This document shows, in pieces, positions 3,166-62,115 of a DNA stretch of 64,000 bases; position 1 is the stretch's first letter, and the number at the start of each line of letters is the position of its first letter. A program made the translations under genes and the position numbers. The DNA is taken from the NCBI RefSeq assembly GCF_030028105.1, contig NC_092377.1, positions 138,486,104 through 138,550,103 on the forward strand, written 5' to 3'. The notes beneath the pieces were generated by a model. The model had not been told where the DNA came from, did no database searches, and saw only the letters and a program-made list of their open reading frames with translations. This stretch comes from Mobula birostris. Its lineage: Eukaryota.

Positions 3166-4593
3166 ATAAAGAGCAGTTAACAATAGATGCACACTTTTCA
3201 CCACCACTAAAGGCACAGAAATCTGCTGTGAAACTGGCTCAGCAATAAAGTGAAGTAAGACTTCCTCTTGAAGGAGACAAGAACATGCAGGTCCTGTAGT
3301 CTACAGCTACAGAAAACAAACTGATGGTGGAACTCAATAGGACTAGCAGCATCTGTGGAGGCATAGAGCCTCTCAATCAAGGACTTCTGAGGGAATTTAC
3401 TTCATTATAAGAGCAGGCCCTGGTAACATTTAGATTTTAACTACAGAAGGAGTTAAAAATAGTTTATCCACACTTTGATAAGCATGCAGTAGAGAAAACT
3501 CTGGCCTTTCTGCACACATCTTCTTTCAAAGAACAAATTTCTAAGATGGCATCATTGTGCTCAAAAAATTTGAACAGAAAACAGAATCCTAAAAGCAAAA
3601 CATCAATTTAGCCAATTTCTTATAAATGCAATGGAAAAGACATGGAAGCTATCCAATAAAATGAACTAGTTTGCAAATAATAAAATCTATGATTACACAC
3701 TCAAAAACATGGGATACAATAAAAGCATATTAATAATCCAATCTTGCTTTGGACATTACTGAGGTGCATTGACTCAATTCACTGCTCTTAGTCACACCAA
3801 TCAAAACGCTACAATTTTCTTGGTTGCGGGTAATGAAGTGTTCCCTATTTAGCACCAAAAATGGACATAGAGTATTTATAGGGACAAATTATATTATATG
3901 GAAACAGCAACATACATTGAAAATAATACTTAAAATGACCCAAAGAGATCACCAGACAGGATTTGACAACACAAAGATATTAGAATAGATATCCAAAGTT
4001 TGAAGTGTCATATTGAGGACAAGAGAGAAGCACAAATGAAGAGTTTTGGTGAGGAATAGCCAAACCTCAGAGCCTGGGCAGCTGATAACTGATTGTAAAA
4101 TAAAAGCAACAGGTAAGTGCACAAGAGAACTGGAGACAGACAAGTGTTTAGAGAATTGTAATACCGGACTACTTTACATAGTACAGTCTGAGGTAGAGAG
4201 CAGTGAAGGGAAAGGCACCACTGCGGAATATGAATGAAGATCTTCATAGACCAGTATGGAGGTTAAAATACATTAGGATGACAAAGGAATAATAACAAGC
4301 CAAGAGATGAGAGATTAGAGATTCATAAAAGGATGTATAGATAACAGAGCTCGGCCAGAAGAGAGGCCATTTTAAGATACATTATCTCACTAGTGTTGAG
4401 AATGGAAACTGGTGAAAATAGTCCTAAGTCATCATACGTTTGTTTAAATTATGCCAAAGAATTCTGACAAGTAGTCTAAGTGGACAAAGGAAAACAGCCT
4501 TGAATGTTTACAGAATCAAACAGTAAGAGGAATTATAATGAAAAACAATTACATTACAATTTCTTTGGATATTTGATGACAGTGAAGTTGTAC

Positions 4594-5274
4594 CTTATTT
4601 ACAGAGTTTCCACAGTCTGTCTTGCATTCCTCATGCTCTACCTTAATGACTTTATGTTCCTGTCTCTCGGCACTGACAGATTCATGTTTACTTCTCTTCT
4701 TTTTTTCCCTTTTCTGCTTGCGAGACAATGCGGATTCAGCCGCAAGAGCCTGCTGTTCATTTAGAAGATCCCCACACAGCGAGGACTCAAATAGCGCCTT
4801 CCCATTGTGGTAAGTCTTAGTTATTCGCAGCTTGATCTCAGGAGAGCCTGTCTTCTTTGGGGTGACAGGTTCAGGAACAGGTGGAGAGGGCACTTTCTCC
4901 TGAATTTCATGTTGCTTCACCAAGTAGTTTTCTCCTAAGTAATAGTCACTGGAACCAAAATTCCTATATGTGCCATAACCATTGGCAGATCCATTGGGGA
5001 GTTGGGAATATGCTGGGCATTTGCTCGGTGATTCATACATATTAACGGTTGAGTAGCCATTGGTAACTGGTGGAATAGTATCAGCTCCAGAAGCAGGATA
5101 AGTAAAGCCTTGTTGTAGGGAAGCCTCATACGATTGCCCTCTGTCTTCCCCAATGCCACCACTGGCATTCAGGACGTCAGGAACCTGCCTCATATTGGCT
5201 GAATCAATAAGTTGTTGTGGCAGTTGAATCGTGTTTCCCATGATACCTTTCATGAATGTGAAGGAGAAATCCAT
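4594..5274 (-). CDS. NSD3: NSD3/WHSC1L1 histone-lysine N-methyltransferase, coding part of first coding exon (exon ~4594-5318, 227 codons, phase-0 end)
   Basis: Translation [27 protein letters not shown]...[35 protein letters not shown] closely matches the recalled vertebrate NSD3 N-terminus. Acceptor ...gtcattccatAG|GCTCAA at 5319/5318 leaves 44 nt of 5'UTR. Probable donor AATAAG|GTACAA at 4594/4593. No further exons recognised in 1-4593. Confidence 0.95.
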
Positions 5275-5977
5275 CGTGTTGCCCCAGCATCCTCAACTTT
5301 CCCTCTCTCCAGTTGAGCCTATGGAATGACAACAAATGTACATCATTAATCTTCACCCACCATTTAACAAGCGGCAACTCACAACTAAGTTCCTGCTAAA
5401 ATAAGGCATGCAAAACAAACTCAAATTTATATCAGACACTAAATTCACAGTATTACACAAAAAGTCAGCTAAAATTATTCTGACTTAACAACAAATAATT
5501 GTTTTTATTCCATGAACATTCAAGATTTTGTTCAAACTACTGAGTCTTCCATTACATTCCAGTTCTTTCAAGAAACGATTAGACTAGTCATCTGGTTTGA
5601 CAGTTTAGTGAATTACCATTAAAACAAGGGAAGCAAAGTACAGCAAAAGTTAAAACACTAACTCATTTGAAGGCAGTAACACAACAAATGATTATTCATA
5701 AGAAATTTTGGGTAGAAGGAATCCATAAATGTTTCTTAAAAAAAAAACACTTGGGAACATTTTCCTACACACAAGTGCTGGTGTCATTTGGTCCCATTTG
5801 CTAGCTCTGCGCAAATCCTTTTACGTTGTTATAATTCTAGTGGTTCCAATTAATGGCATGATTCACTTGACTTCAATAGCTTTTTGCGGCAAAGCTGTCC
5901 ATATGGCAGAAAAAGGGAGTGAAAACTTGTTTCTAACTTCATATGAAACTCTTTCTTGTTAATTTCATGCTACCTGT

Positions 5978-6670
5978 AGGATGGCAGCACGCTCAGACGC
6001 AGCAGCTACTTTGGTCCAATCAAGGCGTGCCTGTTCATTGTGTATATTTTTTTACAATCACAAGTCACTACTAGAAACTAAGAACATTAAGTACTGCAGG
6101 TCCACCTCATCAGTGAGTTCCTCAATAGCAATGGAGCTAGACTTATTGCGTACTGTTTGTTGTGTCGCCGCATGGACTCGTTGTGTACTGTTGGACGGTG
6201 CACAAGATTGTCTTGGACATTTTTATTGTGATTGCAAAACCCTGTTCGACATTAGTAACATAGAATAAAAATCCAGTTCACTGGACTGATGGCAGGGCAG
6301 CTGCGTTACCTTGGTTGTGGCAAGGCCTAGGCCGATCAGGAGTGGAGACGCCAAGGTGGTGTGGGAGAGCCCCTGCAGAGCATGCTGGAATCTGTACTTA
6401 TGTTGGAGGCTAGACCCTCCCATCAGTGCTGCCCCCCAGTGTTCACTTGGTGGAAGAATAAACTGGACGAGGATAATTTACCATCAATTCTACAGACATG
6501 CTACTAAGAACTTTGGGCTTTATTTTTTGTTCCTTGCAACTGATTTTCTGAAATTGTAATCATATGCATTATTTGTGCTATGTGTTCATGGTAATCTGTG
6601 TTGCACCTTGGCCTCAGGGGAACACTTTCGTTTGGCTATATTCAAGTACAGTTGAATGATAATTGAACAA
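5978..6670 (+). mobile_element. Putative non-autonomous retroelement (Rex1-like 5' and 3' ends)
   Basis: Begins gatggcagcacgctcagacgcagc (similar to the 5' end of 27588-28270) and ends in tgaatgataattgaac. Confidence 0.45.
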
Positions 6671-7409
6671 TACAACATCATTCAGAACTTCAAAGAGTTT
6701 GAATATTTTATTTAGATTTCTGATCCTCACCCTCCCTCCCCCAAAACGATACTCCCTTACAAACTCTTGCTCTACCAAATACCAGTCTGTCCTTAGAACA
6801 AGACTATCTCCCACTTGAGAAATACCATTGTCTACTGCTAAACCATTCTCCTCACAGGGAATTAAAGACACAGCATTGTTCACAACTGCAGTTAAACTGG
6901 GAAAAAAGGGACAACAAATTGACCGTTTGCTCTGCTCCATTGTTACTGATGTGTAAGTGACTGGCATAAGGCAAAGGCTATGTGATTGCAATTTTCTTTA
7001 CCCACATGCATAACCATAAGAATCACAGGCAAAGAAAAACACAAAAATCCTTGTCATCAGGTTCAAGATGTATTGCAGATTAATGAATAACTGACATCAA
7101 AAGTACCCAATATGAAAAATGATTGAACTCAAGTCTTCCATGGCAAAATTACTTAAAAGCTCTGCTACAGAGAAGGCATGTTTTGCATCCAACTAGCCTC
7201 AGGCTATATAACCTGAGGGAAAACAATGCACCTTAAATGGAACATAACAGAAGGAAGGTTTTTGTGCACACCTACACAGGTGAGCAGGGGGATCTGTGTG
7301 TATCCTATATCACCTGATGCTTGTTACTTGTTACATACACGTTCATAGAGTAACTTTCAGGTGTCATGTGGTTAGTTCATGAGTATCCAACTTCTACATT
7401 GCTCAGAAG

Positions 7410-7702
7410 GCTCAGCAGCTTGAAGACTCGTACGGCCAGATTTGGGAACAGCTTCTTTCCAACTGTGATAAGACTGCTGAACGGATCCTGACCCGGTTCT
7501 GGGCCATATCCTCCAAATATCCGGACCTGCCTCTCAGTTTTTTTGCACTACCTGACTTTCCATTTTCTATTTATGATTTATAATTTAAAATTTTAATGTT
7601 TAATATTTGTAATCCAGGGAGCGGGAAGCACAGAATCAAATATCGCTGTGATGATTGTACATTCTAGCATCAATTGTTCAGTGACAATAAAATATAAAGT
7701 AT
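7410..7702 (+). mobile_element. Rex1-family LINE 3' end
   Basis: LKTRTARFGNSFFPTVIRLLN remnant followed by 3'UTR ending gacaataaa(aaagtat)n. Confidence 0.7.
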
Positions 7703-8729
7703 AAAATTCTGAAACACACTTCATTTTAGCTACACTGAAACTCAGTTTGTACATTGCTTGATTGCAGCCTTTCTCCCAAAAAGTGTTAATTTGTGTGCCG
7801 CTTTTACACTGCAATAAATAAAATAAAAAACAAAATGCTATTATTACAGACATCCAGTTAGACATGTCATGCCCAAGAACAACAAGCTAGAGCATTTATC
7901 ATTTATTGAAAATAACTTAAAACCGTGAATCTGGAGTACATTATCATAAACACATTAACCCAAAGGAATTACCCCAAAAATCAGTAATTTAGATACTTAA
8001 CGCCTAATGGAAGGGATTTGCAAATAGCAGTGAAAATGAGAATTTTCTTTCACGAGTCACTGAATTACAGAAAAACAAGTACTTTCCTAAAATGATAAAG
8101 TAGGGAAGGCTGGGGGTGAAGGGGTGATGACACGGAAGATGTAGAAATGACGTGAAGATACCTTCCTTTAAATATTTGATCGTCTTCAAAAGGAAAAATA
8201 TCCCATTTTCAATCCCCAGATAAAATGTAAATCAAACTAAAATGCAAATGCAGGCAGAGTGATTTTTATCCAAGGTATTTGCTGGTTTAAGGTGATTAAG
8301 ACTTCACAGAATCACTGCCGAACATTCTTTATAAACCTCTGACAAGACATTTCAAAAGCAACTCCTTATCTAAACATTTGCAAGCAATCTGATTGGAATC
8401 CATGCACTTCCTCTCCCCTTCTACAATGCACATCTATTCACTCATTTTCATACAAAAGATGCAAGGAGAACTGCTGAGAAGCTTTTCTATTTTTAAAATG
8501 ACTGCTAAAAATGACAGAACTGCAAACATTATGGAACCTCTTATGCAACAAAGATGCAGCTCTAATCCAATAAGGAGCTACATAAAGGGTAATATACCTA
8601 CTATCAATCTTGTTCCATTACCAATGAGAAAACTGACATGAGGAGAAATTAAATTTTGGATACAGAATTCTAAAAAGCTCCTTTCAAAACTAAAAAATTA
8701 TCTGTTAGAAATTACTCATTTTGCAAATA

Positions 8730-9453
8730 CAGTGGATTCCAGTTAATTAGGACACATCAGGACCAGTACATTTTGACCCAATTAAGCGGCTGCACCAATT
8801 AACCTAAGTTGCATGGAAATAGATAAAACCTTTAAAAAAGACAAACTACCATTTAACTGAGTAACAAATTATGTATGTAAATGAATACATAAATACCACA
8901 AATACTACTACATATTATAAAACTGCGGACAGCATTAGTTCCTGTGAGACAGTATGCTGCTGTTCTTTTGATTAACTATAAATGAAAATCAGCAGACACC
9001 TAGTGCAGATAATCGACTGCCTTCATACAACGCTTTCAATGAATGCATGCAAAAAATCTTCATTTTCATTATAACATTCAAAATGATTGTTGATACCTTT
9101 AAATTATTTGTAGACCCCAACTATGTAGTGAAATAGTTTTATTTTCCCTCTCAGCCATTTCTGGCATCTTCAAGCCTGAATGCTTGAAATCGCAGTGAGC
9201 AAAACAGTTCTGAATTATTTATTTTTATTTATTGCCATACAGCACTTACTCTTCACCAACTATCAGTGACAAAAATCACTGCTCTTTGAACACAAACACA
9301 CGCAATTGACACTAGTCAGAAATTGTTGGGCAACGGTCTCCTATCCCAATGAACTGGCATAGTGTCCCAAATAAATGAAGAGAATTCAGGCTACGTTCTC
9401 AATTAGTTGTTCCAACCCGATTAACCGATGGTCCAATTAACCAGATTCCACTA
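8730..9453. mobile_element. Tigger/pogo-type non-autonomous DNA transposon
   Basis: TA|CAGTGGATTCCAGTTAATTAG ... CCAATTAACCAGATTCCACTA|TA: imperfect TIRs with TA duplication. Confidence 0.8.
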
Positions 9454-12480: not shown

Positions 12481-14164
12481 TTCATTGCTTTGGCATGAAG
12501 GAAACAGAGTATATCCTGGACTGGAGGTGAAATACATTCTTGAAGCTCTGTCCGTGTGGATATACCTACTATGAAGAGCTGATATTGAAAAAGCTTTTAT
12601 CAATTCCAGTAGCCACTCTAAAGAAATTTAACTATTTGACATCAATCTAGTTCAACGGCATTTCTCCAGGAAACCAAATTATAACTCTCAAGGTATTCTT
12701 TTATCTTCTCTGAACAACAGAGACATTTTGTTACACAGTATTAAAGGGCTCACTGCACACAAAATACTATCTGATTATATTAAAAGTGCAAAATTTGTGG
12801 AAGGACCTTGTTGCTCCATTTTCCCCCCTCTAAATATTTTCAGAGGATTCAATACAAAGGTAGATGAGGTTCCACATTATCTTATGCTAACTCCCATCCC
12901 TCATGAATAACTCGAATGACTTCCATCAGTTTCCAATGTCATCTGAAAAACAGTGTTTGTGTACTAAATATTACATCCAGTAGTATCTGCAAACCATCAA
13001 GTGGCTAATGTATTTACAGTTGTTTTGGCAAGTACACGATCAATACAGCACACCGCTCGTTCTTCCTTGATAAACAATATCTCAAATGGTACTCAAGTGA
13101 TAGATTTTGTACTTGCCAATTACCTTAAAAACACACTTTTTCTTAATAAAAAAAGTTGAAAAGGAAAATTTGTCTGAATAAATGTCTTCACATGAAATCT
13201 TCAAATTATTCTTGTAAAGACACAAAATCTTTAACGGATCAATTCAAAGCCAAGTCAGTAAAACTATCAGGATAAATGAGGGCACAGAAAATTAAGGAAC
13301 AAAGTCAAAGCTGCCTTGCTATAGGTAGGTAATACTTTTCAATATTCATAAAAGATTGCTACTAATGTTACAGGAATGGGAGAGATAGTAGAGCAATTAG
13401 AGAGCATAATAACCAATTTAAAGAGAGCAGTCAAAAAGATACCAGTGCTCAAGGTCATAAATCACCTAGTCTGAATTGGATGCATCCTTGGCTGCAGAGA
13501 AAAACAAGGCTGGAAGTAAAGCACACCTTAATTTTAGTTTCCTTAGGGTGCAAAAGTGATGCAAGAGAACTGAGAGATTATAAAGTGTAACGCTCTCATC
13601 CCACCAGAGAGAACAGCTTAAGCTGTTGCTCCATTGTTCACTGTTGGGAAATTTGATAAAAAGAATCCAAGTTTAAAAAATTCATCAAGATAATTAGAAA
13701 AATTATCAAGTAAATAAGCGACAAACAGCTTGCTAAACACAAGCCATGGCCGACAAAACCAATTTGTTGATAATATAATCACGGTTGATACAGCATAAAT
13801 GGACTTTCAAATTGGTTTGATATATAGAATTTGCAGAGCATGCTGGTGAAATGGGCGTCCACTGAATTAGAGAGTTAATGGGAGCATGAATACAAAGCTG
13901 ATGAAATAACCTAAGTGTTGCAAGGAATTGTTTCATTTTTACATTGATGAACTGTATCACTGCTACTGTTCTTCTTGTCAGATACACAAACAATGCATAA
14001 TTATGAAATCTGAGGTGATAAGAAACTCAGATATATAGTAAGTAGTGAGAAAAACACAAGCAGTTTGCATTGATACATGGTGAACAAAATGTAATGTGTA
14101 AAGTGAGACATTTTGGAAAGGAAAACACATTATAAACTGAGAAATCTATTATAACACAAGATTT

Positions 14165-14280
14165 TGGAAATCTACAGCAACACGCACAAAATGCTGGAGG
14201 AACTCAGCAAGTCAGGCAGCATCTGTGGAGGGGAATAAACAGTCAATGTTTCAGACCAAGACCTTTCATCAGGACTGGAA
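14165..14280 (-). mobile_element. Penelope-derived short element with degenerate minimal hammerhead (14240-14277)
   Basis: Reverse complement CAGTC-CTGATGA-AAGGTCTTGGTCT-GAAA-CATT-GACTG followed by GATGCTGCCTGACTTGCTGAGTTCCTCCAGCA. Confidence 0.75.
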
Positions 14281-15739
14281 AACATGTATTAATAAATTTG
14301 ACGTTGAGATCTGGAAGATTTGTGGGTACACATACAAATACGATGGCAGCAAGAAAAAATTGTGATTTTTTAAGAAGACTGCCAACTACCTGGCCCAGCA
14401 TGGAATAAAAGACAAGCTATGCTGAAACTTATAATGTGTCAGATCTCAACTAGAATTTGGTATTTGATTCTGGACAGAATAGCGAGGCCATGGAAAGTGT
14501 GCAATGTGATATACTACAATGGTACCGAGGATGGAGGAGTTCAGTTAGGCACACTGACTGAATATTCATGAGCAGAAAAGGGTAAGTGCAGACCTTGATT
14601 GGAATTATCTTAACTATAAAGGTTTTTTAAAGAGTAAATAATGATAACCAGTTTCACCCTGCACCACAGAGCATGTGTGTGTCTGTTGGCTGCAGGGTGG
14701 TTGTTAGTCCAGAGGCAGATTTACTACAACCTCCAAAGTGACCAGAAGGGAAATAACATTATTCCTTAAGCATTGTAGTGTAGAATCTAAGCTGAAGGGA
14801 TACTGAAAGTAGATTTTAAAATGTGCTAAACAGAATTGAATGCATAATGAAAACCAAAAATATGCAGGTATGTGTAATAAGTGCAAGCTTGTATAACTAT
14901 TTGCACAAATATTTCAAATGAACACTTTACAAATGGCCTCCCATTTTGTTCCATCTTAAAAAAAGAAAACAAGCACAAAAGGAAATACATAATATATTTA
15001 TTACATAAAGCCACACAAGCTCAAAATTATACAATAAACCACATCAGCAAATAATCTAAACATCTATCACCATACTAGAAATGAAATCAGCAGTTATCAT
15101 TATAATCATCCTTCAAATCCATATCTATAAACATCAAAAAAAGTAAAAGAACAAGAACATCATCAGGCAAAAGTACTTATTTCAATAATCTCACAGGCAT
15201 AATAGATATTTCCTTAGACAATTCAGGCAACATTTGCAGCACCTTATCAGATTGCAATCCAAAAGAAAAAGGAAGAAAGAAATCTTAAATGCTTTGAGGT
15301 GCAGGAGTGAGAAAGGAAATATTCATTACCAGGAACAAAAATGGAACTGGGATTTTGAAATAAAACTGCAACTTCATTTTGTGTCCCCAGTTAGCAAAAA
15401 AAGAGAAGTAACAGCAATATGGCTGCCACTGGCCCTTTAAATCCAGCAATGTAGCCACCCATCTCCATCCTCAACCCAATAAGAAAAACAATCCTAACCC
15501 TAGTGAAGTGTTTACTGAAAATCAAACATTTTATGGTACAGTGGGCTTCTGTGGATGATGAGGAGGAAGAGAGAGAGTGAAAAGGAGGGGGAAATATAAT
15601 GAAGACAAATGACAGTGTAAATACTACCTGCAGTTTGTTCCATTCTAATCAGACCCAGGGAAGCTCAACTTGACGGGGATTCACAGTAAATCAGTCCAGC
15701 AAAGGGAGACAGGATGTCCAGGCCGCTTTCAGTTTAAAG

Positions 15740-23155: not shown

Positions 23156-23741
23156 TAGTTTACTTAGAATACTTAAGTACTGTTTCTGGGGCAGGGAATC
23201 TAGGAAAAAGTCTGAGCCTTTAGATACCTGTCCTATGATTAACCACCTTGTTGCTGTATCCCCAGTCTGACATAATGCCACTAACAACACTAAAGCTAGC
23301 AGCACTTTTACCTCAGGCAGATCAGCTTCATAAAAGCAGAAGCTCATGATCCATAAAACACACAGCAGATTCAAAATCTGTTTGATGTATTTGTAGCTGT
23401 GCTCACTTCTCCGAGTCAAGTCGTTCAAATTGGTTATTATTTCACCAAAATGAATCAATTGTTGTTTAAAGATTACAAAAAAAACCTCTCTGAAGTGATA
23501 ACTTTTTAAAGTAGGCAATAAGACCTTTCAATGTAAAATTTAATTGGACTTTTTTTTGTACAAGATAACAGCTGCCGGGCTTTTACCTTAGTGCCTTCTA
23601 ACATCAGCATACAAAGCTCACTGAGTTATTTGCAAACATTAGCACTGCCGTCCAGTAATTTTAAAATTACAGTTATTTAATGCATTAACTTCCTCATGTT
23701 AGCCACTAGCTGAAAGCTAGAAACAAACTTGTACTCCATAT

Positions 23742-23950
23742 TCAACTTTTCTCCTATCATTCTGGATCTCCCCCTCCCCCTCCAACTTTCAAATCCCTTA
23801 CTCACTCTTCCTTCAGTTAGTCCTGACGAAGGGTCTCGGCCTGAAACGTTGACTGCACCTCTTCCTACAGATGCTGCCTGGCCTGCTGCGTTCACCAGCA
23901 ACTTTGATGTGTGTTGCTTGAATTTCCAGCATCTGCAGAATTCCTGTTGT
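23742..23950 (+). mobile_element. Penelope-derived ~200-bp element with TSD
   Basis: Matches the 3' UTR of the GIY-YIG element at 57810-58480; TTGTACTC(C/T)ATAT at 23729-23741 and 23951-23963. Confidence 0.85.
23819..23854 (+). ncRNA. Minimal type I hammerhead ribozyme motif (intact core)
   Basis: AGTC-CTGACGA-A-GGGT(CTCG)GCCT-GAAA-C-GTT^GACT: stem I AGTC/GACT, stem II, palindromic ACGT in place of stem III, GUU cleavage triplet. Confidence 0.8.
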
Positions 23951-25044
23951 TTGTACTCTATATCCTTTTGTTTATGGATGGTATCCAATGTATGGAAATA
24001 GAGTCTATATAAAACAGTCAATTTTTTAAAAAAATGTGTTTTTGGTTTTTATTTCATTATACCTAAAATAGAAATATATAAATTTATCAAACTAAGTTGG
24101 CTCCTTCTCTTAGAATGCTGCTCGAGTCCAGAAGACAATAAAAAGCCAGATGATATTTTTTACTCTTTTGGGAATTCACAAATTCTGATGTTGTAATTTT
24201 AGAAGACAAGTCTTGGGTACAAAATATCAACACCAAAATTTGACAAAGTTCTCATTTCACAGTAGCAGGCACAACTTTCATGGTCAAATGAATGTTGATA
24301 GTATACTCACAGTATTTTGTCATGCATGCAGCAACTCAAAGGTCTTAGCAACAAGCCCACACAAGAGGTGTATCCTTTATGAAGTTGGCTACTTCAATAT
24401 ACTATGCTTTCTATGGTTCAGTGAATCAGTTACACTGCTGTTATGGTTACTTGTGTTTTGTCCTTTCAGAGTTAAGCTGAAGCGGTACTTTGCTTCAGTC
24501 ATCAAACTACAGAGCTCAGTAAAATAAAATGCTTTTTCTGCCACTGCAAAAAGCCTAATCCCTGGGATAAAACTGTGACTGTGCATTAGAAAAGTGCACG
24601 ATGTTACTGAACACAATATTTGTGTCGTTCTCCACTCTGTTTTTTTTCCAGTTTTCTGTTCCAAGCATTTCTCCAGACGAGGAGGTTCACACACCAGTTG
24701 TTCAAAGTGTTATTGGGAAAGGAATAAGAAGCAAGGTGCATTAGCGCACTGTCCACTAACCAAGACTCAAAGCTCCTGTATTAGTTTATCTAGAGACGTG
24801 CACAAGCTGTGTCTGGAAATGGTACTACAGCTCATAATCCAAATCATAACCCAGTTGCAATCTCACAAAAATCCCTGATTCATTTAATTTTTAATGCCAC
24901 AGGACCATTACTTTGTGAAATTAAAAAGATTAAATTCTGTGAACTTGCTGCAAGTCAGGCAACATCTATGGAAAGAGTTAATACTTCTGGCTGAAGACCA
25001 TTTGAACTTCTCACTATTCGATTTCCAGTGTTGACCACTACCGT

Positions 25045-35857: not shown

Positions 35858-38800
35858 TTTTCCTCAGCTCAAGCTGGTAAAACCTGAGGTTCGGGCATAG
35901 ACAAGCCCATTCATTTATCAATTGCAAGGAACTTTTGGACTATTCTCATGGTGTTTGGTATTGTGGCTTTCTGAAGATTTACATAGGTATTACTGTGTAG
36001 CCCTAATTGTTTAATACTATTGTGTAAAGCCTTTGGGATGATACCAGTTGTAGATATTACTATTGGGACAATGTATATCCTGTTCATGTTGCATGGTCTT
36101 TCAGCTTCCTCTTTTAATTCAGCATTTTCTGGTGTTTTTCACTTATTGATTTCTTTAAGTTATGTGTGTTTGGAATGGTAATATCCATTAAGTAAGTTGT
36201 TCTTACTTGTTTATCCTGTATTATTATATCCAGCTGGTTATTATGGATTGTCCTATCTCTGATTGATCAGTCATAATACAATTTGTGGTATTCTGACTCT
36301 AAAACCGGATCAGGCTTGTACTTATAGGAAGGTGTGATTCCTTTTATGAGTTTGTATTTTAAAGTAAGATTTTGATGAATAATGTTTGCCACTTGATTGT
36401 GCCTATGTAAAGTAATCAGATTGAGCTAAACTGCTACAGGATCCTGTAATGTGTTGGATTTTTCTAGTTTTTCTCAGTATTTTCTACATTTATCACCTTG
36501 TATTTGTTGGTGTTTTGTTTTATATTTTTGATAATCTTTTGTGTTAACCACTTGGTCCTGTGCTGTCACAAGGAACCTTTCTGTTTCTGGGAAGAGGTCT
36601 CCAACTCTGAGCCAGGAGTTCGATGCTTCTTTGTCGACATCCAGTCTGCTCAGATTGTGGGGATGTTTTCCATGGAGGGTCATGCTCCTCCATTGCTTAA
36701 CTTTTTCTTCAATGGTGATAATGTCTTCATTTTTTCAGGGCTGTCCTCTCATTTAAGTTTAGTGTTGTATATTTCCTATCAGAATTGTGTGGAGTGCTGA
36801 TTCCTGTTTTCATTGATACAAATATATCCTTAGATGTTTTATCCGACTGATGTGTAGTTTTTTTAATGTCTATTATTCCTCTTTCCCCCTTCTGTCCTAG
36901 GTAGTGTTAATCTCAGCTCATATGAATGTATAAAATGTTTACTGAAATTGGTCATTTCATTTCTTATTTTTCTTTATAAATTTTCCACATTGGTTTTGGA
37001 CCAAGATACTATGCCAAAAGAAGACGTTAATATGGGTATAGTGGAAGTGTTTATTGCCTTTGTTATACTTTTACTGTTGCGTTGGCAGATTTTCTTAAGC
37101 CTTGAAATAAATTCTGCCAAAAGTTTTCCCTTTATCATGTTATGATCTATTTTCTTCCCTTGTTGATATCTCAGATGCTTGTACGTTTCATATTCATCCA
37201 TCCATTGTATTGTATCCTGCTGCTCTGTTTTTTTTAAAATTCTATCAGCTTTCTATCATCTTTCTTTATGTTTAATGTTCTGCATTTATCCAGTCCAAAG
37301 TTCATGTCTATATCTTTCGAAAGTAGTTCTGCTATTTGAATTAATTGCTTTAGCTTAACTGATGAAGGAGCATATACAAACGTTTGTAATTTCAAATCAT
37401 CCGTCTATAGAAGGTGTGTTAAGGTACAGCTCATTTAGTTGTTTCTGATTTGATACCCAATTTTCCTCTGATTCGGTAAATTAGAGAGCAAGTTTAAAGC
37501 TATACAGAACCATATTGGGCTTAGAGAGTCAATGTGGAAAATGCCACGGTTTATTTTGATAATGGTGGTTGTTCTTTTCTGGCTGTTAATAGATCGGATG
37601 ATTATAGTACACCAATGTTTCATCAGATGTTGCAGTATTGGGTGTAGTTTATATATATTAAGAACTTTTGCTAACCCTGAGAAAGGGGCCGGGTCAAATA
37701 CCTTTTGGTAGTCAATATAGCAACATGAAAGATTTCTGCTTTTCCACCGGGCTTGATCTAGAGTTACAGAATCTATTATCAGTTGTGCTTTACATTCCTT
37801 CATACCCTTACAGCATCCTCTCTGCTCTTCTGCAAGCGTATTGTGGTTATCTAATTGAGTGGTGATCAGTCGTGAGATATGAAATGTTATAAGTTTTTAC
37901 TTAGCTTGTAAACAAGTAATAGGAGGGTATTTTGATGGATCTTTTGTGATTTCCCCTTCAGGCAAAAGGTATGTTTTACCTTCTGTCAAAAATTTGGGCA
38001 TTTTTTCAGGATTTTTAAGAAAATTGTTGATATGCATTAATAGATGTGCATAAATGGTTGAAGGCAAGTATATGTTTTATACGAATAATTCTGAATATTA
38101 TCACTGCCAGTATTTGGATTTTGGATCTCCCCCTCCCCCTCCAACTTTCAAATCCCTTACTCACTCTTCCTTCAGTTAGTCCTGACGAAGGGTCTTGGCC
38201 TTAAACGTCGACTGTCCCTCTTCCTAGAGATGCTTCCTGGCCTGCTGCGTTCACCAGCAACTTTGATGTGTGTTGCTTGAATTTCCAGCATCTGCAGAAT
38301 TCCTGTTGTTCACTGCCAGTATTTTTCTAGTTTGTGGATATTTTTATAACCTCTTTCAGCGTATCTATTGTAACTTCAGGTATTTGCATTTCTTCAATCG
38401 TTTGCGTGTGTGTGTTCTTTTTCCTCCCCAATCCAGCTTGCTTCTTGATTGCGTGTCACCCTGTTTGACCAGACGTTAGACCAAAATTCGTTATCTCTGT
38501 GTTTGTTGGTAATTCTGTGCTGGGGTTGGTGACGTTGTGGTGTGTCGAATTTAGTTTCGATGTACTGTGTAAACCTTTCTCATTGTTTCTGAACTGATAC
38601 AGTATTCTGTTTTATTTGGTGCATTTCATGTATCTATTTAGTCTGGCTTTGTATGCACCAAGCTCTTGTTTTAGTGTATCTATAAACTTTACAGTGCTTT
38701 TGTTAGGCTGATTTTATCTTGTATGGATCTTATATTTCCATAGTATTTCCTTAACTTTCCTTTTAACTTTCTTGCTCAGGTTATCCTTTCTATACTCCAT

Positions 38801-46555: not shown

Positions 46556-47324
46556 CAGTTCATCATATTAGTGAGATTGTTTGCTTATCATCACTTTTTA
46601 TACACTTCAGATTGCAGTACTACTGTATAATATTTTGTGCCATTCCACTGTTCTGTGCTCATAGTTGTATTTATTGTTGTATTCACTATTAATATCAATG
46701 CTGTTTACTCTGTAGGCTACACACAAGCAAGAAATTCCATTGCACCCTTGTGTCTATGACATCTACTCTGAATCTGAAGGAACAGATGCTGGATAAAACT
46801 CAGTGGCTCAAGCAGCATCTAGGAAGGGAAGTCAACTGTTGATGAACCTGACCTGCTGAGTTCCTCCAGCATCTTCTCTATTGCTCGAGGTTCCAGCATC
46901 TGTACTCTCTTTTGTGGCTCTATCCTCAATCTGAGTTGAAGGGGACCCAAAAACTAAAGGGCAGAGAGTTCCGGTGAGAGGCGGAAGTTTTAAGAGACCT
47001 CAGGGGCAACCTCTTCACATAGAGGATGGTTTGGGCTGCAAAGGTGGTCCAATAACATCATCTAAGTATATGGATGGGTGACGTTTAGAGTGCTGAAGGT
47101 CAAAGGTGGACAAATGGAACTAGTTTGGTGGGTACCATGAACAAATTGGGCTGAAGGGTCTGGTTCAATGCCGTTTTATTACTCAGTGACTCTAAATTAT
47201 GATATGTTTACTGAATTTGAACAACAAGTTGGCTTCAGGTGAAAATTGCTTCATGGTGTTCCCATGCAGTGACATTTTCCTTTTAGTTACCTGTCCCCTA
47301 GCATTATTTAAACAAGGCCATTTA

Positions 47325-47999: not shown

Positions 48000-48430
48000 A
48001 AGCCACGCCGGCCATTGGTTTCTTTCCCAGTCCTACGTCACAAAGGGACGGGTCAATTGAAGTAAAGTGTCAATCTTAACTCCTGCCTTTTGATTGGAGA
48101 GCTGGACTGTCAATTATTCGCGCCGGCCGCTGTGACGCGCTGGGTGGGCTGAGGCGCGCGGCCGCTTGACGGTTGCCCCCCCCTCAGCCCCAGCCCAGGT
48201 GGTCGTTCCGTCACGGGCCGGTCGGTTGGTCGTCTGGCGCGGCGGCCGCTCTGCCACCGGGAGCCGGGTGTCGGCGGAAGCGCCACATGGGCGGGCTTTG
48301 GCGGGTGAGTGTCAACAGAACGAGGGCGGGGCGAAAGCCCGGGTGGGAAGGGTTAGGCAAATACCGGGGAGTCAGGGGCGGCTCGGCCGGCTGGGTAGGG
48401 AGAGGGAGGGAGACCGGTGGGGGAAGATGG
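48000..48430 (+). promoter_or_regulatory. LETM2: CpG-island promoter of LETM2
   Basis: CpG/GC-dense island. ATTGG at 48014 and 48093, CRE-like TACGTCA at 48034, TGTCAAT (Pbx/Prep-like) at 48068 and 48108, CGGAAG at ~48275, GGGCGGGG at ~48324. Confidence 0.8.
48130..48304 (+). other. LETM2: Predicted exon 1 (5'UTR) of LETM2, TSS uncertain
   Basis: Consensus donor GCGG|GTGAGT at 48304/48305 within the CpG island. Confidence 0.65.
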
Positions 48431-48477
48431 GGAAGTGGTTCGTAGTGGGGAAGGGTGCAGGGGCAAGGCGTCCATAG

Positions 48478-51255
48478 GGAAGGGGTTTGTGGGGGGAAGA
48501 CTATAGGGAGAGGGGTTCGCGGGGAAGGCTGTAGGGGGAGGGGTTTGTGAGGGGAAGGCTGTAGGGGGAGGGGTTTGTGGGGGGAAGGCTGTAGGGGGAG
48601 GGGTTTGTGAGGGGAAGGCTGTAGGGGGAGGGGTTTGTGGGGGAAAGCTGTAGGGGGAGGGGTTTGTGGGGGGAAGGGGTTTGTGGCGGGGAAGGCTGTA
48701 GGGGGAGGCTGTAGGGGGGAGGGGTTTGTGGGGGGAAGACTATAGGGAGAGGGGTTCGCGGGGAAGGCTGTAGGGGAAGGGGTTTGTGGGGGGAAGGCTG
48801 TAGGGGGGAGGGGTTTGTGGGGGGAAGGCTGTAGGGGGAGGGGTTCGCGGGGAAGGCTGTAGGGGAAGGGATTTGTGGGGGAAGGCTGTAGGGGGGAGGG
48901 GTTTGTGGCGGGGAAGGCTGTAGGGGGGAGGGGTTTGTGGGGGGAAGGCTGTAGGGGGAGGGGTTCGCGGGGAAGGCTGTAGGGGAAGGGATTTGTGGGG
49001 GAAGGCTGTAGGGGGGAGGGGTTTGTGGGGGGAAGGCTGTAGGGGGAGGGGTTCGCGGGGAAGGCTGTAGGGGGGATTTGTGGGGGAAGGCTGTAGAGGG
49101 AGGGGTTTGTGGCGGGGAAGGCTGTAGGGGGAGGGGTTTGTGGGGGAAGGCTGTAGGTGGAGGGGTTTGTGGGGGAAGACTGTAGGGGGAGGGGTTTGTG
49201 GGGGAAAGCTGTAGGGGGAGGGGTTTGTGCGGGGAAGGCTGTAGGAGGAGAGGTTTGTGCGGGGAAGGCTGTGGGGGAAGGCTGTAGGGGGAGGGGTTTG
49301 TGGCGGGGAAGGCTGTAGGGGGTAGGGGTTCGCGGGAGAAGGCTGTAGGGGGAGGGGTTTGTGGGGATGGCTGTAGGGGAAGGGGTTTGTGGGTGGAAGG
49401 CTGTAGGGGGAGGGGTTTGTGGGGGAAGGCTGTAGGTGGAGGGGTTTGTGGGGGAAGACTATAGGGGGAGGGGTTCGCGGGGAAGGCTGTAGGGGGAAGG
49501 GGTTCGCGGGGAAGGCTGTAGGGGAAGGGATTCACGGGGGAAGGCTAGGGGAGGGGTTTGTGGGGGAAGGCTGTAGGAGGAGGGGTTTGTGGGGGGAAGG
49601 GGTTTGTGGCGGGGAAGGCTGTAGGGGGAGGGATTTGTGGGGGGAAGGCTGTAGGGGGAAGGGGTTTGTGGCTGGGAAGGCTACAGGGGAGGGTTTTGTG
49701 GTGGGGAAGGCTGTAGGGGGAAGGGGTTTGTGGCGTGGGAGGGGTTTGTGGGGGAAGGCTGTAGGGGAAGAGGTTCGTGGGGAAGGCTGTAGGGGAAGAG
49801 GTTCGTGGGGAAGGCTGTAGGGGGAAGAGATTCGCAGGGAAGGCTGTAGGGGGCAGGGGTTTGTGGGGGAAGGCTGTAGGGGAAGGGGTTTGTGGGGGAA
49901 GGCTGTAGGGGAAGGGGTTTGTGGGGGCAAGGCTGTAGGAGGAGGGGTTTGTGGGGGGAAGGCTGTAGGGGGAGGGGTTTGTGGCGGGGAAGGCTGTGGG
50001 GGGAAGGAGTTTGTGGCGGGGAAGGCTGTGGGGGAGGGGTTTGTGGCGGGGAAGGCTGTAGGGGAGGGGTTTGTGGCGGGGAAGGCTGTAGGGGGAAAGA
50101 GGTTCATGGGGAAGGCTGTAGGGGGAAGGGGTTTGTGGCGGGGAAGGCTGTAGGGGGAAGGAGTTGGTGGCGGGGAAGGCTGTGGGGGAAGGGGTTTGTG
50201 GCGGGGAAGGCTGTAGGGGGAAGGGGTTTGTGGCGGGGAAGGCTGTAGGGGGAGGGGTTTGTGGCGGGGAAGGCTGTAGGGGGAAGAGGTTCGCGGGGAA
50301 GGCTGTAGGGGAGGGGTTTATGGCGGGGAAGGCTGGAGGGGGAAGAGGTTCGCGGGGAAGGCTGTAGGGGGAGGGGTTTGTGGCGGGGAAGGCTGTAGGG
50401 GGAGGGGTTTGTGGCGGGGAAGGCTGTAGGGGGAAGGGGTTTGTGGTGGGGAAGGCTGTAGGGGGAGGGGTTTGTGGCGGGGAAGGCTGTAGGGGGAAGG
50501 GGTTTGTGGCGGGGAAGGCTGTAGGGGGAAGGAGTTTGTGGCGGGGAAGGCTGTAGGGGGAAGAGGTTCGCGGGGAAGGCTGTAGGGGAGGGGTTTATGG
50601 CGGGGAAGGCTGGAGGGGGAAGAGGTTCGCGGGGAAGGCTGTAGAGGGAGGTGTTTGTGGCGGGGAAGGCTGTAGGGGGAGGGGTTTGTGGCGGGGAAGG
50701 CTGTAGGGGGAAGGGGTTTGTGGTGGGGAAGGCTGTAGGGGGAGGGGTTTGTGGCGGGGAAGGCTGCAGGGGGAAGGGGTTTGTGGTGGGGAAGGCTGTA
50801 GGGGGAAGAGGTTCGCGGGGAAGGTTGTAGGGGAGGGGTTTATGGCGGGGAAGGCTGGAGGGGGAAGAGGTTCGCGGGGAAGGCTGTAGAGGGAGGTGTT
50901 TGTGGCGGGGAAGGCTGTAGGGGGAGGGGTTTGTGGCGGGGAAGGCTGTAGGGGGAGGGGTTTGTGGCGGGGAAGGCTGTAGGGGGAAGGGGTTTGTGGT
51001 GGGGAAGGCTGTAGGGGGAGGGGTTTGTGGCGGGGAAGGCTGTAGGGGGAGGGGTTTGTGGCGGGGAAGGCTGTAGGGGAAGAGGTTCGCGGGGAAGGCT
51101 GTAGGGGGAAGGGGTTTGTGGTGGGGAAGGCTGTAGGGGGAAGGGGTTTGTGGCGTGGAAGGCTGTAGGGGGAAGGGGTTTGTGGCGGGGAAGGCTGTAG
51201 GGGCAGGGGTTTGTGGCGGGGAAGGCTGTAGGGGAAGGGGTTTGTGGAGGAAGGG
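48478..51255 (+). repeat. G-rich minisatellite (~90 units of ~29-31 bp, consensus GGGGAAGGCTGTAGGGGGAGGGGTTTGTGGC)
   Basis: Directly visible tandem array with variant units (GTTCGC, GTTTATGGC, GACTAT) and extreme G-over-C skew. Confidence 0.97.
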
Positions 51256-51741
51256 GTTCATGGGGATAGGGGGTCAGGGGAGGGCTGGTATAGAGGTGCA
51301 GGGAAGTGATATTGCAATTGGGTGGGGTGGGGTTGTGGGAAGGGGAACAGCACCAGAGGTCAAATTGAACAGGTTACTAGAGCTGGTGGTGGTGGTGGTG
51401 TGATGCATATGATTTGCAACACACAGACAATGCTGGAGGAACTCAGCATCTGTGGAAAAGAGTAAACAGTCGAGACCCTTCATCAAGATTGGAAAGGAAC
51501 GGCAGAAGTCAGAATACGGTGGGAGGAGGGAAGGAAGTAGTAGAAGGAGGCAGGTGATAAACGAAACTGAGGAAGGGGTGAATTAAAGAGCTGGGAAGTT
51601 GATAGGTGAAAGAAATAAAGGGCTGAGAAGGGGAAATCTGGTTGGTGAGGACAGGAGACCATGGAAGAAAGGGAAGGAAAGGAATGTAGATTGTTCAACA
51701 AATATAATGATTCAATGTAAAATTCATGTCATGTATGACTG

Positions 51742-57809: not shown

Positions 57810-58480
57810 GCAACACACGTCAAAGTTGCTGGTGAACGCAGCAGGCCAGGCAGCATCTCTAGGAAGAGGAACAGTCGACGTTTCAGGCCGAGACACTTCG
57901 TCAGGACTAACTGAAGGAAGAGTTAGAGATTTGAAAGTGGGAGGGGGAGATCCAAAATGATAGGAGAAAACAGGAGTGGGAGGGATGGAGCCAAGAGCTG
58001 GGCAGGTGATTGGCAAAGGGGATATGAGAGGATCATGGGACAGGAGGCCCAGGGAGAAGGAAAGGGGGGGCACCCAAAGGATGGGCAAGGGATATAGTCA
58101 GAGGGAGAAAAAGGAGAGTGAGAGAAAGAAAGTGTGTATAAAAATAAATAATGGGATATGAGGGGGAGGTGGGGCATTAGCGGAAGTTAGAGAAGTCAAT
58201 GTTCATGCCATCAGGTTGGAGGCTACCCAGATGGAATATAAGGTGTTGTTCCTCCAGCCTGAATGTGGCTTCATCTTTACAGTAGAGGAGGCCGTGGATA
58301 GACATGTCAGAATGGGAATGGGATGTGAAATTAAAATGTGTGGCCACTAGGAGATCCTGCTTTCTCTGGCGGACAGAGCGTAGGGGTTCAGCAAAGTGGT
58401 CTCCCAGTCTGCGTTGGGTCTCGCCAATATATAGAAGGCCACATCGGGAGCACCGGACGCAGTATGTCACCCCAGCCGAC
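57810..58480 (-). mobile_element. Penelope-like element 3' fragment: GIY-YIG endonuclease ORF end + 3'UTR with hammerhead (57873-57908)
   Basis: YCVRCSRCGLLYIGETQRRLGDHFAE...VATHFN...RLEEQHLIFHLGSLQPDGMN; downstream AGTC-CTGACGA-AGTGTCTCGGCCT-GAAA-CGTC-GACT. Confidence 0.92.
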
Positions 58481-58494
58481 TCCGCATCCCATTA

Positions 58495-58956
58495 ATTCCA
58501 CATTTATTTTTCCTACATTTACACACTTAGTCCAGCGGTCGTGGAGCATACGGATCCCTTCTTTGTAGAGGTCAGCGTCTTGGACCTCTACAAACCAGCA
58601 CATTTATTTTTCAACATAGTCTCCTCCTACACGTACACACTTAGTCCAGCGGTCGTGGAGCATACGGATCCCTTCTTTGTAGAAGTGGTCCACAGCACGG
58701 GTGATTGATAAGGTGAACTCTTTGAGTGAAAATGCAGAAAGTTTGAAGTTAATAACTCATCGCCTTCTACCTTCGGCCAAGAACTTATCAATCACCCCTG
58801 CTGTGGACCACTTCTACAAAGAAGGGATCCGTATGCTCCACGACCGCTGGACTAAGTGTGTACATGTAGGAGGAGACTATGTTGAAAAATAAATGTGCTG
58901 GTTTTTTAAAATTGACTCCTCCTACCTTAGGCCACAAACTTATCAATCACCCCTCG
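58495..58956. mobile_element. Mariner-derived fold-back element
   Basis: Mariner transposase C-terminus FYKEGIRMLHDRWTKCVHVGGDYVEK* present on both strands; right TIR cttatcaatcacccctcg|TA. Confidence 0.85.
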
Positions 58957-59964
58957 TAAAACTTTTGATTAGTTACATTGATGTGACTTGATGGTTATGC
59001 TTGTGAATTACTGGCAGGGTGGGAACCGTCAAATCTGAGCTTAATTCTGTTCTCAACAGCCTTCATATGCTTTTACAGTGTGACTTAATGATAATGCAAA
59101 ATGAATATTACCTTTTGAACATTGCAGCAATTAATTAAGAACAGAGTTGCTATTGTGAACTAGAAACTGAACTAAGTTCACTTAGGTTATGGGCCAATTT
59201 TTACTTCCTGATAGAGGCAAAAGCATTTAGGAACTACTATAAACAAAATTAGATTTTCTATAGTTGACATGGAAAAGTTACGGACTAGTAATACTGTAGT
59301 TGGTAATGAATAAACAATAGGACATATAAACTTGCTATAAAACTTAAGTTTTAACCTAAATTCTTAATTATATTCTTAGAAATAATTTCCTCTATTTAAA
59401 ACTTAAAATGCTTTTTAAAGATTTTTAACAAATCTGCTGAATGTTCTCGCTTCCTAATAGCACTAGCTACATGAAAAAGGATCTAGATCTAGCACTAGGT
59501 ACAATTTGCTGGATGTGGTGCCGTCTCTTTAATTCCAGGCATACAGATTGAATGGGTAATTTTTTCTATTGTGATAATGAAGTATTAGAAATCTTGACTG
59601 ATATTTCACTGGATAGAGTTCAATTTTGTGCTTTTAATTGGTTTCTACATGGTGAAGTCCCAACTCTGATTTTATAGCTTATTAGTGCAAAATGTAGTAC
59701 ATTTGAGCTTTATGTTTTAATGCCAGGTTTTCTTGAAGAAATTAGAGTATTTAATATACATGTTGCTTCTGTGGTGATGGGTTTAAAATATTGCCCCAAA
59801 TTTCTAACTATGTGTAAGTTTTTTAAAAACATACAAGCTGGCATTCCACTTGTTAAGTAAAACATTGCCTAAACTTATTAATAGTGTCATTTTTGTATTT
59901 TAAAAATAATTAACATGTTATATAAATACATCATTTAAAGTCACGTGTTCTGTTTACAGACGAC

Positions 59965-61289: not shown

Positions 61290-61995
61290 AACACTTTCCT
61301 TCTCTCACCTGGACAGCAAAGATGCATACATCAGGGTGCTCTTTATTTACTACAGCTCAGCGTTCAATACTATCATCTCTCAAAAGTAATCAAGCTTCAA
61401 GACCTTGCCCTCAATACCTCCTCGATTTCCTCACTTACAGACCAGAGTCAGTTTGGATTGGCAACAACATCTCCTCCGTGATCTCAATCAGCACAGGTGC
61501 ACCACAAGGCTGTGTGCTTAGATACTGCTCTACTGGCTTTACATTTATAACTGTGCGGCTAAACACAGCTCCAATGCCATATTCAAGTTTGCTGATGACA
61601 CCACTATTGTATGCCCACTCAAAGGTAGTGATGAATCACATATAGCAGAGAGATGGAACATCTGGTTGAGTGGTGCCATAACAACAACCAGCAAGACTAA
61701 AGAGCTGATTATTGACTTCAGGAGAAGGAAACGAGGTCTATGAACCAGACCTCATTGGGTCAGAGTTGGGGAGAGTCAACAACTTTAAATTCCTCTGTGT
61801 TATTATTTTGGAGGGTCTACCCTGACCCCAGCATGTAAGTGCAATTTCGAAGAAAGCACGGCAATGCCTCTACTTCCTTAGGAGTTTGTGAAGATTCAGC
61901 ATGATGTTTAAAACTTCGACAAACTTCTGTAGATGTATAGTGGAGAGTATGTTGACTGGCTACATCATAGCATAGTATGGAAACACCAATGCCCT
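61290..61995 (+). mobile_element. Rex1 LINE fragment
   Basis: [51 protein letters not shown]. Confidence 0.88.
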
Positions 61996-62115
61996 TACTA
62001 GCTCTTCCTTCAGTTAGTCCTGAGGAAGGGTCTTAGCCCAAAAAGTCAACTGTACCTCTTCCTAGAGATGCTGCCTGGCCTGCTGCGTTCACCAGCAACT
62101 TTGATGTGTGTTGCT
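61992..62115 (+). mobile_element. Penelope-derived short element, hammerhead core mutated (62016-62051)
   Basis: ctcttccttcagttagtcctgaggaagggtcttagcccaaaaagtcaact...gatgctgcctggcctgctgcgttcaccagcaactttgatgtgtgttgc. Confidence 0.85.

Follow-up and report, generated by a model that had tools for sequence, protein, structure and literature searches.

Short hammerhead-bearing inserts in a stretch of the Mobula birostris genome are very probably 5'-truncated 3' ends of an endonuclease-bearing Penelope-like element

Most minimal hammerhead ribozymes (min-HHRs) of Penelope-like elements (PLEs) have been described as occurring singly and as probably coming from truncated PLEs (Cervera and de la Pena 2014, PMC4209133), and in PAc, an anole Poseidon PLE, a tail lies between two internal start sites of the reverse transcriptase (RT) (PMC11167929). 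Retrozymes that lack long terminal repeats (non-LTR retrozymes) are reported as head-to-tail fixed units with at least two consecutive complete hammerheads and with abundant linear and circular RNA (PMC7229834; bioRxiv 10.64898/2026.07.22.740005). Here we consider the min-HHR-bearing inserts in a stretch of 64,000 nucleotides from Mobula birostris (contig NC_092377.1, positions 138,486,104 to 138,550,103), referred to below as the window. A preliminary description had read these inserts as a discrete non-autonomous family of the retrozyme type or of a type resembling short interspersed elements (SINEs). Our data show no fixed 5' end, no diagnostic base and no separate lineage for them, and the inserts are very probably 5'-truncated 3' ends of an endonuclease-bearing (EN+) PLE, likely made by the element's own enzyme with a variable upstream stop.

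Positions within the element are counted from the first base of hammerhead stem I as 0 (window 23819 in copy 1). On this scale the predicted cut falls between +31 and +32, a copy has its 3' end at about +98 or about +132, and the stop of the open reading frame (ORF) is near -295. Four young copies and two older relatives, near 14165 and 51415, are present in the window as first described. Copy 1 (23747..23951, + strand) is a 5'-truncated PLE 3' end running from -72 to +132, with 95% identity to the 3' end of L221, the full-length copy presented below. It consists of the final 72 nt of a pyrimidine-rich 3' untranslated region (UTR), the hammerhead, a hairpin-rich block (23855..23917, +) reaching the inner 3' end at +98, and an optional 34-nt PLE tail (23918..23951, +) reaching the outer 3' end at +132, and it stands between 13-bp target-site duplications (TSDs) with one mismatch (23729..23741 and 23951..23963, +). 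Copy 2 (38118..38310, +; -60 to +132) belongs to an insertion that spans 38101..38324 with perfect 15-bp TSDs (38101-38115 / 38310-38324, +). Copy 3 (57810..58482, -; -597 to +98) is without the tail and comprises the end of the GIY-YIG-coding ORF, the 3' UTR and the hammerhead; its GIY-YIG frame (58180-58491, -) matches PF01541 at an E value of 0.0048, below the Pfam cut-off. Copy 4 (61995..62115, +; about -21 to +99) adjoins a fragment of another interspersed repeat, and no TSD was seen around it. Over the shared part, copies 2-4 are 89-96% alike to copy 1. The older-family copy at 14159..14281 (-) starts at -5, within the 5'-end hot zone discussed below, and that at 51416..51683 (-) carries about 195 nt of its own 3' UTR with internal deletions and is 74-77% identical to real older-family copies. 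The preliminary description was right that two copies have TSDs, that two 3' termini are shared, at +98 and +132, and that the parent is a PLE whose minimal type I hammerhead is the motif in question, copy 3 running into the GIY-YIG frame. Its common unit of 110-200 bp did not survive: the six window copies, spaced 4-24 kb apart, have six different 5' ends (-597, -195, -72, -60, -21 and -5), and the copy given as 51415-51490 is really about 270 bp long.

Walking upstream led to a full-length copy in partial tandem, L221 (G000:C5:205762073-205766462, L221 3573-7962), in which a 5'-truncated upstream unit of about 900 bp is followed by a hammerhead at 4341, the ORF, the 3' UTR and a second hammerhead at 7850. 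The ORF (4511-7558) encodes 1015 aa with no stop, its first ATG lying 170 nt behind stem I, and it contains RVT_1 (E 0.0027) and, at its C terminus, a GIY-YIG domain (E 0.00094), both weak matches under the Pfam cut-offs. A CX4CXXC linker precedes GIY-YIG in the translations of L221 and of other copies and points to the Neptune or Nematis type, the motif being common to both in the published description (PMC8557442). L221 3573-4454 repeats 7082-7962 at 96.5%, which constitutes the partial tandem, or pseudo-LTR (pLTR), and the upstream unit reaches past the hammerhead in 20 of 29 other copies that contain the ORF start. The comparison of sequences shows the window inserts to be the pLTR 3' end of this EN+ PLE. 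At least 40 copies match the ORF start of L221 at 99-100%, and the family is therefore very young; three related families with different 3' UTRs share its terminal block. We also note that the 3' hammerhead of L221 has a core change and the 5' one is intact, and that the alignment to L221 breaks at +1020 in 9 of 30 ORF-start copies (L257, L261, L264, L269, L272, L273, L274, L277 and L279), which suggests that they share an indel or belong to a subfamily that differs internally.

The continuity of short and long copies was assessed in a random sample of 130 evenly spaced stretches of 10 kb (1.3 Mb of a 4.0-Gb genome, all on large contigs), which gave 54 young arms at least 84% like the young family, and in two tail-selected sets (n=29 and n=28, 57 copies) chosen solely on the 67 nt behind the cut site. 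Window copies L111 and L225, the query locus L260 and one duplicate BLAST arm in L150 were dropped before counting. L234 (G000:C18:97742234) and L235 (C18:97459112) have the same 5' breakpoint 283 kb apart and are probably a segmental duplication; L235 was also dropped from the 5'-end rates, the short-versus-long column test and the pooled tree, flank and pair tests, and is still included in the counts of TSDs and inverted arms (58 copies). Among the best matches to the 208-bp copy 1, 28 of the 29 others extend upstream through the pyrimidine-rich 3' UTR for about 270 to more than 1700 nt, many of them into GIY-YIG and RT coding sequence, and the one exception adjoins a long arm in inverted orientation. 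The random arms have 5' ends from +90 to beyond -2122, with 25 reaching the ORF. In the tail-selected copies, 24 of 57 reach the ORF and 25 start within 110 nt of stem I, and upstream of -10 copies stop at an even rate, 0.10-0.37 per 100 nt across all bins. Continuous 5' ends had been set against a separate family by the preliminary description itself, and the 5' ends in these samples are widely spread. The 3' ends, in contrast to this spread, cluster at +95..+109 and +126..+132. The supposed high local density of the motif also proved unfounded, since the window has 10 profile matches at any score and the 1.3-Mb sample 263 (200 of them at a score of at least 35, or 154 per Mb), which makes the window load average.

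Target-site duplications of 9-18 bp (mode 13-14) were found for 33 of the 58 tail-selected copies, against none in 120 mismatched flank pairs scored as a control, and they accompany both short (11/17) and long (22/39) copies, so that a TSD round a short copy shows insertion and not a family. An inverted arm adjoins 30 of the 58 copies (about half head-to-head), and in 25 of 28 terminal inverted pairs the 34-nt tail is present on exactly one arm; this extension is the tail already known from PLEs in published accounts (PMC8557442, PMC11167929). By analogy with the anole PLE (PMC11167929), the GIY-YIG endonuclease would nick the target, and reverse transcription of uncut RNA would be primed by the target at two internal sites, 98 or 132 bases behind the hammerhead start, the RNA presumably arising, as in Drosophila, from a promoter in the pLTR. 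Early termination of reverse transcription would then leave a variable 5' end, and the second arm would derive from the other strand. Short copies formed in this way are likely to be dead ends, as they end at the putative start sites and lack the sequence behind them that the anole enzyme needs.

Several observations weigh against truncation at a freely variable stop as a complete account. Short arms are common, 24 of the 54 random arms being no longer than 210 nt. Their 5' ends are in excess at -10..+10, both in the random sample (9/54, P 1e-5) and in the tail-selected sets (7/29, P 5e-5, and 4/28, P 0.026), the zone having been chosen after the first two sets, so that only the third (4/28) is a clean replication. 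Arms of like length tend to be paired, with 9 short-short, 16 long-long and 3 mixed inverted pairs (Fisher 3e-5), a figure to be read with the caveat for short-short pairing that BLAST ends at fold-back joints are unreliable. Finally, in a pooled tree of short and long arms the short arms cluster weakly (15 changes against 18.7, P 0.017 stratified), and a repeat of this pooled tree gave 16 changes against 18.8 (31 of 500 shuffles), each on 81 columns only; we count this clustering against our reading.

These numbers, together with the TSDs of short arms and the reported origin of retrozymes from PLE pLTRs (bioRxiv 10.64898/2026.07.22.740005), are what can be said for a self-copying, ribozyme-driven short retroelement family, which we nevertheless regard as highly improbable. 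No base among 28 positions tested separates 22 short from 61 long arms (smallest P 0.086), and in trees of 81 columns, from which 13 arms of intermediate length (-110..-10) were excluded, short arms fall into subfamily clades together with long ones, and each of two groups of identical rows includes both kinds. The tree of the random sample alone shows no clustering of short arms (7 changes against 7.5 shuffled), nor does a nearest-neighbour test (P 0.26). The ribozyme is no better kept in short arms, with core and stems intact in 5 of 16 short and 37 of 61 long arms, and no upstream flanks are shared among 52 short arms bar one pair, in which both apparent flanks are long arms of the same element. 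In the 1.3-Mb sample no arrays of a fixed unit were seen: among the 200 matches, neighbours within 1 kb comprise 11 same-strand cases, with spacings of 74-904 that all differ, and 29 head-to-head cases. A retrozyme would be recognised by a fixed unit that is repeated head to tail and has two or more complete hammerheads, and no such repeats were found in this sample. The features of a SINE, a fixed 5' end with its own lineage or a Pol III head, are likewise not found; copy 1 contains no exact match to the A-box or B-box consensus, and the window has no tRNA gene. The short copies moreover end at the inferred start sites, without the parent sequence that follows. On these comparisons, the short copies are not a separate lineage and the discrete 110-200 bp unit is not real.

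With truncated PLE ends as the preferred explanation, the excess of 5' ends at the hammerhead would be a preferred stop inside one process and not the mark of a second family. The stop rate in the hot zone is 0.9-1.6 per 100 nt compared with 0.15-0.22 upstream, about 4-9 times the background, and it is because of this excess that inserts of 100-140 bp are common. An expectation that the inserts favour one 5' end is borne out to this extent, although copies 1 and 2 (-72 and -60) themselves lie outside the zone. In the young family the ends fall at -8..+9, with a sharp upstream edge and a trail downstream, and in the older families 15 ends fall at 0/+1 against 1-4 at neighbouring positions. For the older families the pile-up could reflect a boundary of homology; upstream pyrimidine content has two modes, with 82 of 138 values at or above 0.7 and 56 lower, and the 5' ends of the old families are less sure than those of the young one. 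The hot zone is not only a boundary of homology, since the young family, whose 3' UTR is known, shows the excess. As regards ORF-start copies other than L221, 20 of 29 continue past the site into a further unit that is truncated to a variable extent, the 5' ends of 3 are at 0, +1 and +10 and those of 2 at +50 and +110, and 4 are without the pLTR block. Four of the 29 (L263, L272, L276 and L281) begin at about +134..+140, directly behind the tail and without the hammerhead block; this may be another favoured 5' end or, as the query edge is at +144, an effect of selection.

One explanation of the hot zone, to which we give serious weight while holding it to be somewhat less than evenly probable, is that it marks a drop-off or joining site on a long template, tandem or circular, at the point where the hammerhead meets the pyrimidine tract, and that the enzyme leaves there or two cDNA arms anneal there. 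In its favour, the site is passed by most full-length copies, many short insertions fold back on themselves at a joint inside the self-complementary hammerhead (inverted pairs make up 9 of 17 short copies), and arms ending in the zone are also paired with long arms (L233, L171 and L106). Yet 8 of these 17 consist of one arm only, in several cases with TSDs directly adjoining it. Stalling of RT is expected at the 3' side of stems, and few ends are found there (about +22 and +36).

A second and rather more doubtful explanation is that the RNA starts at the hammerhead's 5' edge, so that RT priming within the 5' copy of the tail would run off the RNA end after about 100-135 nt and the cDNA would jump to the 3' pLTR in the manner of retroviral strand transfer, failed jumps giving short inserts and repeated jumps partial tandems. 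The sharp upstream edge with a downstream trail, in the young (-8..+9) and older (0/+1) families alike, and the pairing of short arms with short arms would follow from it, as would the ORF-start copies that begin at 0, +1 and +10, up to 3.5 kb into synthesis, with none at +32. A putative initiator-like motif at the hammerhead edge would also agree with such a start. According to the published account, the anole enzyme depends on RNA lying downstream of its start site and copies RNA that is uncut (PMC11167929), and only the junction of 5' pLTR and ORF offers this; in D. virilis, the Penelope promoter is reported to lie in the pLTR (PMC2377424). Against an RNA start here, the D. virilis start is placed some 120 nt upstream of helix I, an intron separating the two (PMC2377424, PMC4209133), the anole element belongs to another clade, and of the 23 ORF-start copies extending to +10, 20 continue into another 3' UTR, with an excess on the second pass that is not significant (2/22 in the zone, about 0.5 per 100 nt). 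The same 20 of 23 exclude a plain linear template that starts at 0 and makes no jumps. Among the contigs listed from 4 of 22 runs (of guessed type) on L221:3560-5300 there was no pile-up of starts or ends and no GT..AG joint, and loose contig ends at the hammerhead edge look like 3' UTRs of other families, which is evidence neither way.

That short inserts are copied from RNA whose 5' end was made by ribozyme cleavage is very improbable. Three of the 57 tail-selected copies start at +27, +28 and +32, one fold-back joint in L221 is at +28/+29, and 7 older-family ends fall at +30..+34, all near the predicted cut. The cut lies, however, inside a 6-bp palindrome that favours fold-back joints anyway, and it coincides with no peak, the main pile-up being 30 nt upstream of it. 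No random young arm of 48 at risk has a 5' end in +20..+40, and none of the 23 ORF-start copies that reach the cut site begins at +32. A splice acceptor was also considered for the hot zone, given the pyrimidine tract, an AG ending at +1 and the D. virilis intron that ends at helix I, and was rejected. No spliced upstream exon was seen, with a pLTR match upstream in 0 of 42 arms ending at -6..+6 (best local score 20), and TSDs or inverted arms directly abut young short copies, which counts against splicing; the 42 arms are mostly old and just a few of them gave a TSD, so that a foreign exon is possible for individual arms.

The hammerhead of copy 1 has the layout first claimed for it when read from the window sequence. 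This minimal type I motif (23819..23854, +) has stem I at 23819-22/23851-54, the core CTGACGA at 23823-29, an extra A at 23830, stem II at 23831-34/23839-42, GAAA at 23843-46, and then CG and TT, with a palindromic ACGT remnant of stem III at 23846-49 and the predicted cut after 23850. The core CUGANGA, GAAA, NUH, helices I and II and the palindromic helix III remnant are all found, in copy 1 and in column counts over 125 aligned copies, and the motif fits the min-HHR as described in PMC4209133. A scan of the window with Rfam gave no hammerhead family at E<=1. The core of copy 1 had been called fully intact, which is true of the core letters and not of their surroundings, the first stem II pair being G.U and the cut triplet GUU. 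Among the 125 aligned copies the first stem II pair is G-C in 62 and G.U in 44, G.U being the state of the youngest subfamily, and the third base of the cut triplet is C (GUC) in 95. In copies 2 and 4 GAAA is without its G, which has been lost, and copy 3 has a mismatch in stem II. Core position 7 varies freely across the 125 copies, as the rules for hammerheads allow. At core position 6, C replaces A in 19 of 125 hammerheads, concentrated in one older family, an apparent core variant at the level of the family.

Absence of covariation in stems I and II was another of the outcomes named beforehand as speaking against a separate family. None was seen, with changes on both sides of a pair in 0-5 of 125 copies per pair and no shuffle control, in a test of little power because the pairs are nearly invariant apart from CpG-type changes. 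In the predicted fold of a monomer the core pairs with the stem III remnant, in agreement with the reported inactivity of single minimal hammerheads (PMC4209133). The core is invariant among subfamilies whereas the tail differs between them, as expected if source elements are selected to keep the hammerhead. For inserted copies the raw counts of changes are 2/378 in the core and 117/2376 in the tail; once subfamily sites are removed these become 2/378 and 36/2129 (P 0.11), not significantly fewer in the core, and selection on inserted ribozymes was dropped as an explanation. We infer that in short copies the hammerhead is a passenger, which after insertion decays like neighbouring sequence.

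Other features of the window include an old head-to-head pair of two short arms (46780..46916, neither strand assigned; joint at about 46845, left end approximate), and further old fragments of the terminal block at 46844/46846 (this head-to-head pair), 24999 (-) and 3360 (-). An inverted-repeat element at 58496-58957, with arms of 121 bp that are 98% identical (58592-58712/58784-58904), lies near the 5' end of copy 3; its terminus resembles a mariner-type miniature inverted-repeat transposable element, and similar sequence is also found near PLE copies in L007 and L052. At 48400-51300 is a G-rich minisatellite of about 3 kb, with units of about 30 bp and a GC skew near +0.68, that looks able to form G-quadruplexes.

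The inserts can be entered in repeat annotation as PLE debris of the described kind, and they carry the warning that short hammerhead-bearing repeats in such genomes should not be taken for retrozymes by default. The family is young and very abundant, and since at least one of its full-length copies is open it offers a good substrate for in vitro work on PLEs with the Cys linker; its roughly 1e5 young insertion ends could bear on the regeneration of the pseudo-LTR and on hammerhead cutting of the copied RNA. If the RNA does start at the hammerhead edge, strong-stop cDNA from the 5' pLTR of uncut RNA would explain partial tandems without a circle made by the ribozyme. In the literature listings searched and the papers cited here, neither this family nor a pile-up of 5' ends at PLE hammerheads was found described, Repbase and Dfam lying outside the search.

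Published work already covers minimal hammerheads that occur singly and dispersed and stem from truncated PLEs, as well as the tail and the inverted arm (PMC4209133, PMC8557442, PMC3846280, PMC11167929). The motif studied here shares with the metazoan PLE min-HHRs of PMC4209133, as reported there, a short helix I, an extra base 5' of helix II, a palindromic 15.2-16.2, the want of a real helix III, a place in both flanking repeats of the PLE, and a distribution as dispersed singles and opposite-strand pairs 100-700 bp apart in several families per genome. It differs in showing no covariation, in the C at core position 6 in an older family, in the G.U pair in stem II of the youngest subfamily, and in number, which by extrapolation is about 6e5 here and 4,000-9,000 strict motifs in coelacanth and Xenopus (PMC4209133), the methods being different. 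With the canonical EN+ PLEs of the Neptune or Nematis type, as they are described in PMC8557442 and PMC3846280, the family has in common a single ORF with RT and C-terminal GIY-YIG, the Cys linker (CX2-5CxxC in those PLEs), further cysteines located between GIY and YIG, heavy 5' truncation, partial tandems, an inverted 5'-truncated copy, a tail of 30-40 bp at one end and variable TSDs, whereas no accumulation of 5' ends at the edge of the hammerhead was noted in those descriptions. As in the account of anole PAc (PMC11167929), two 3' ends bound a tail downstream of the hammerhead and there is no sign of insertions starting at the cleavage site; in PAc, however, the ORF starts inside the hammerhead and includes the tail, and here 170 nt separate stem I from the first ATG and the tail is part of the 5' UTR. 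The likeness to non-LTR retrozymes, as reported in PMC7229834 and bioRxiv 10.64898/2026.07.22.740005, extends to the type I hammerhead, a short non-coding sequence, an origin from PLEs and TSDs of more than 4 bp. Unlike retrozymes, the copies in Mobula birostris are dispersed, have variable 5' ends and show continuity with the coding element.

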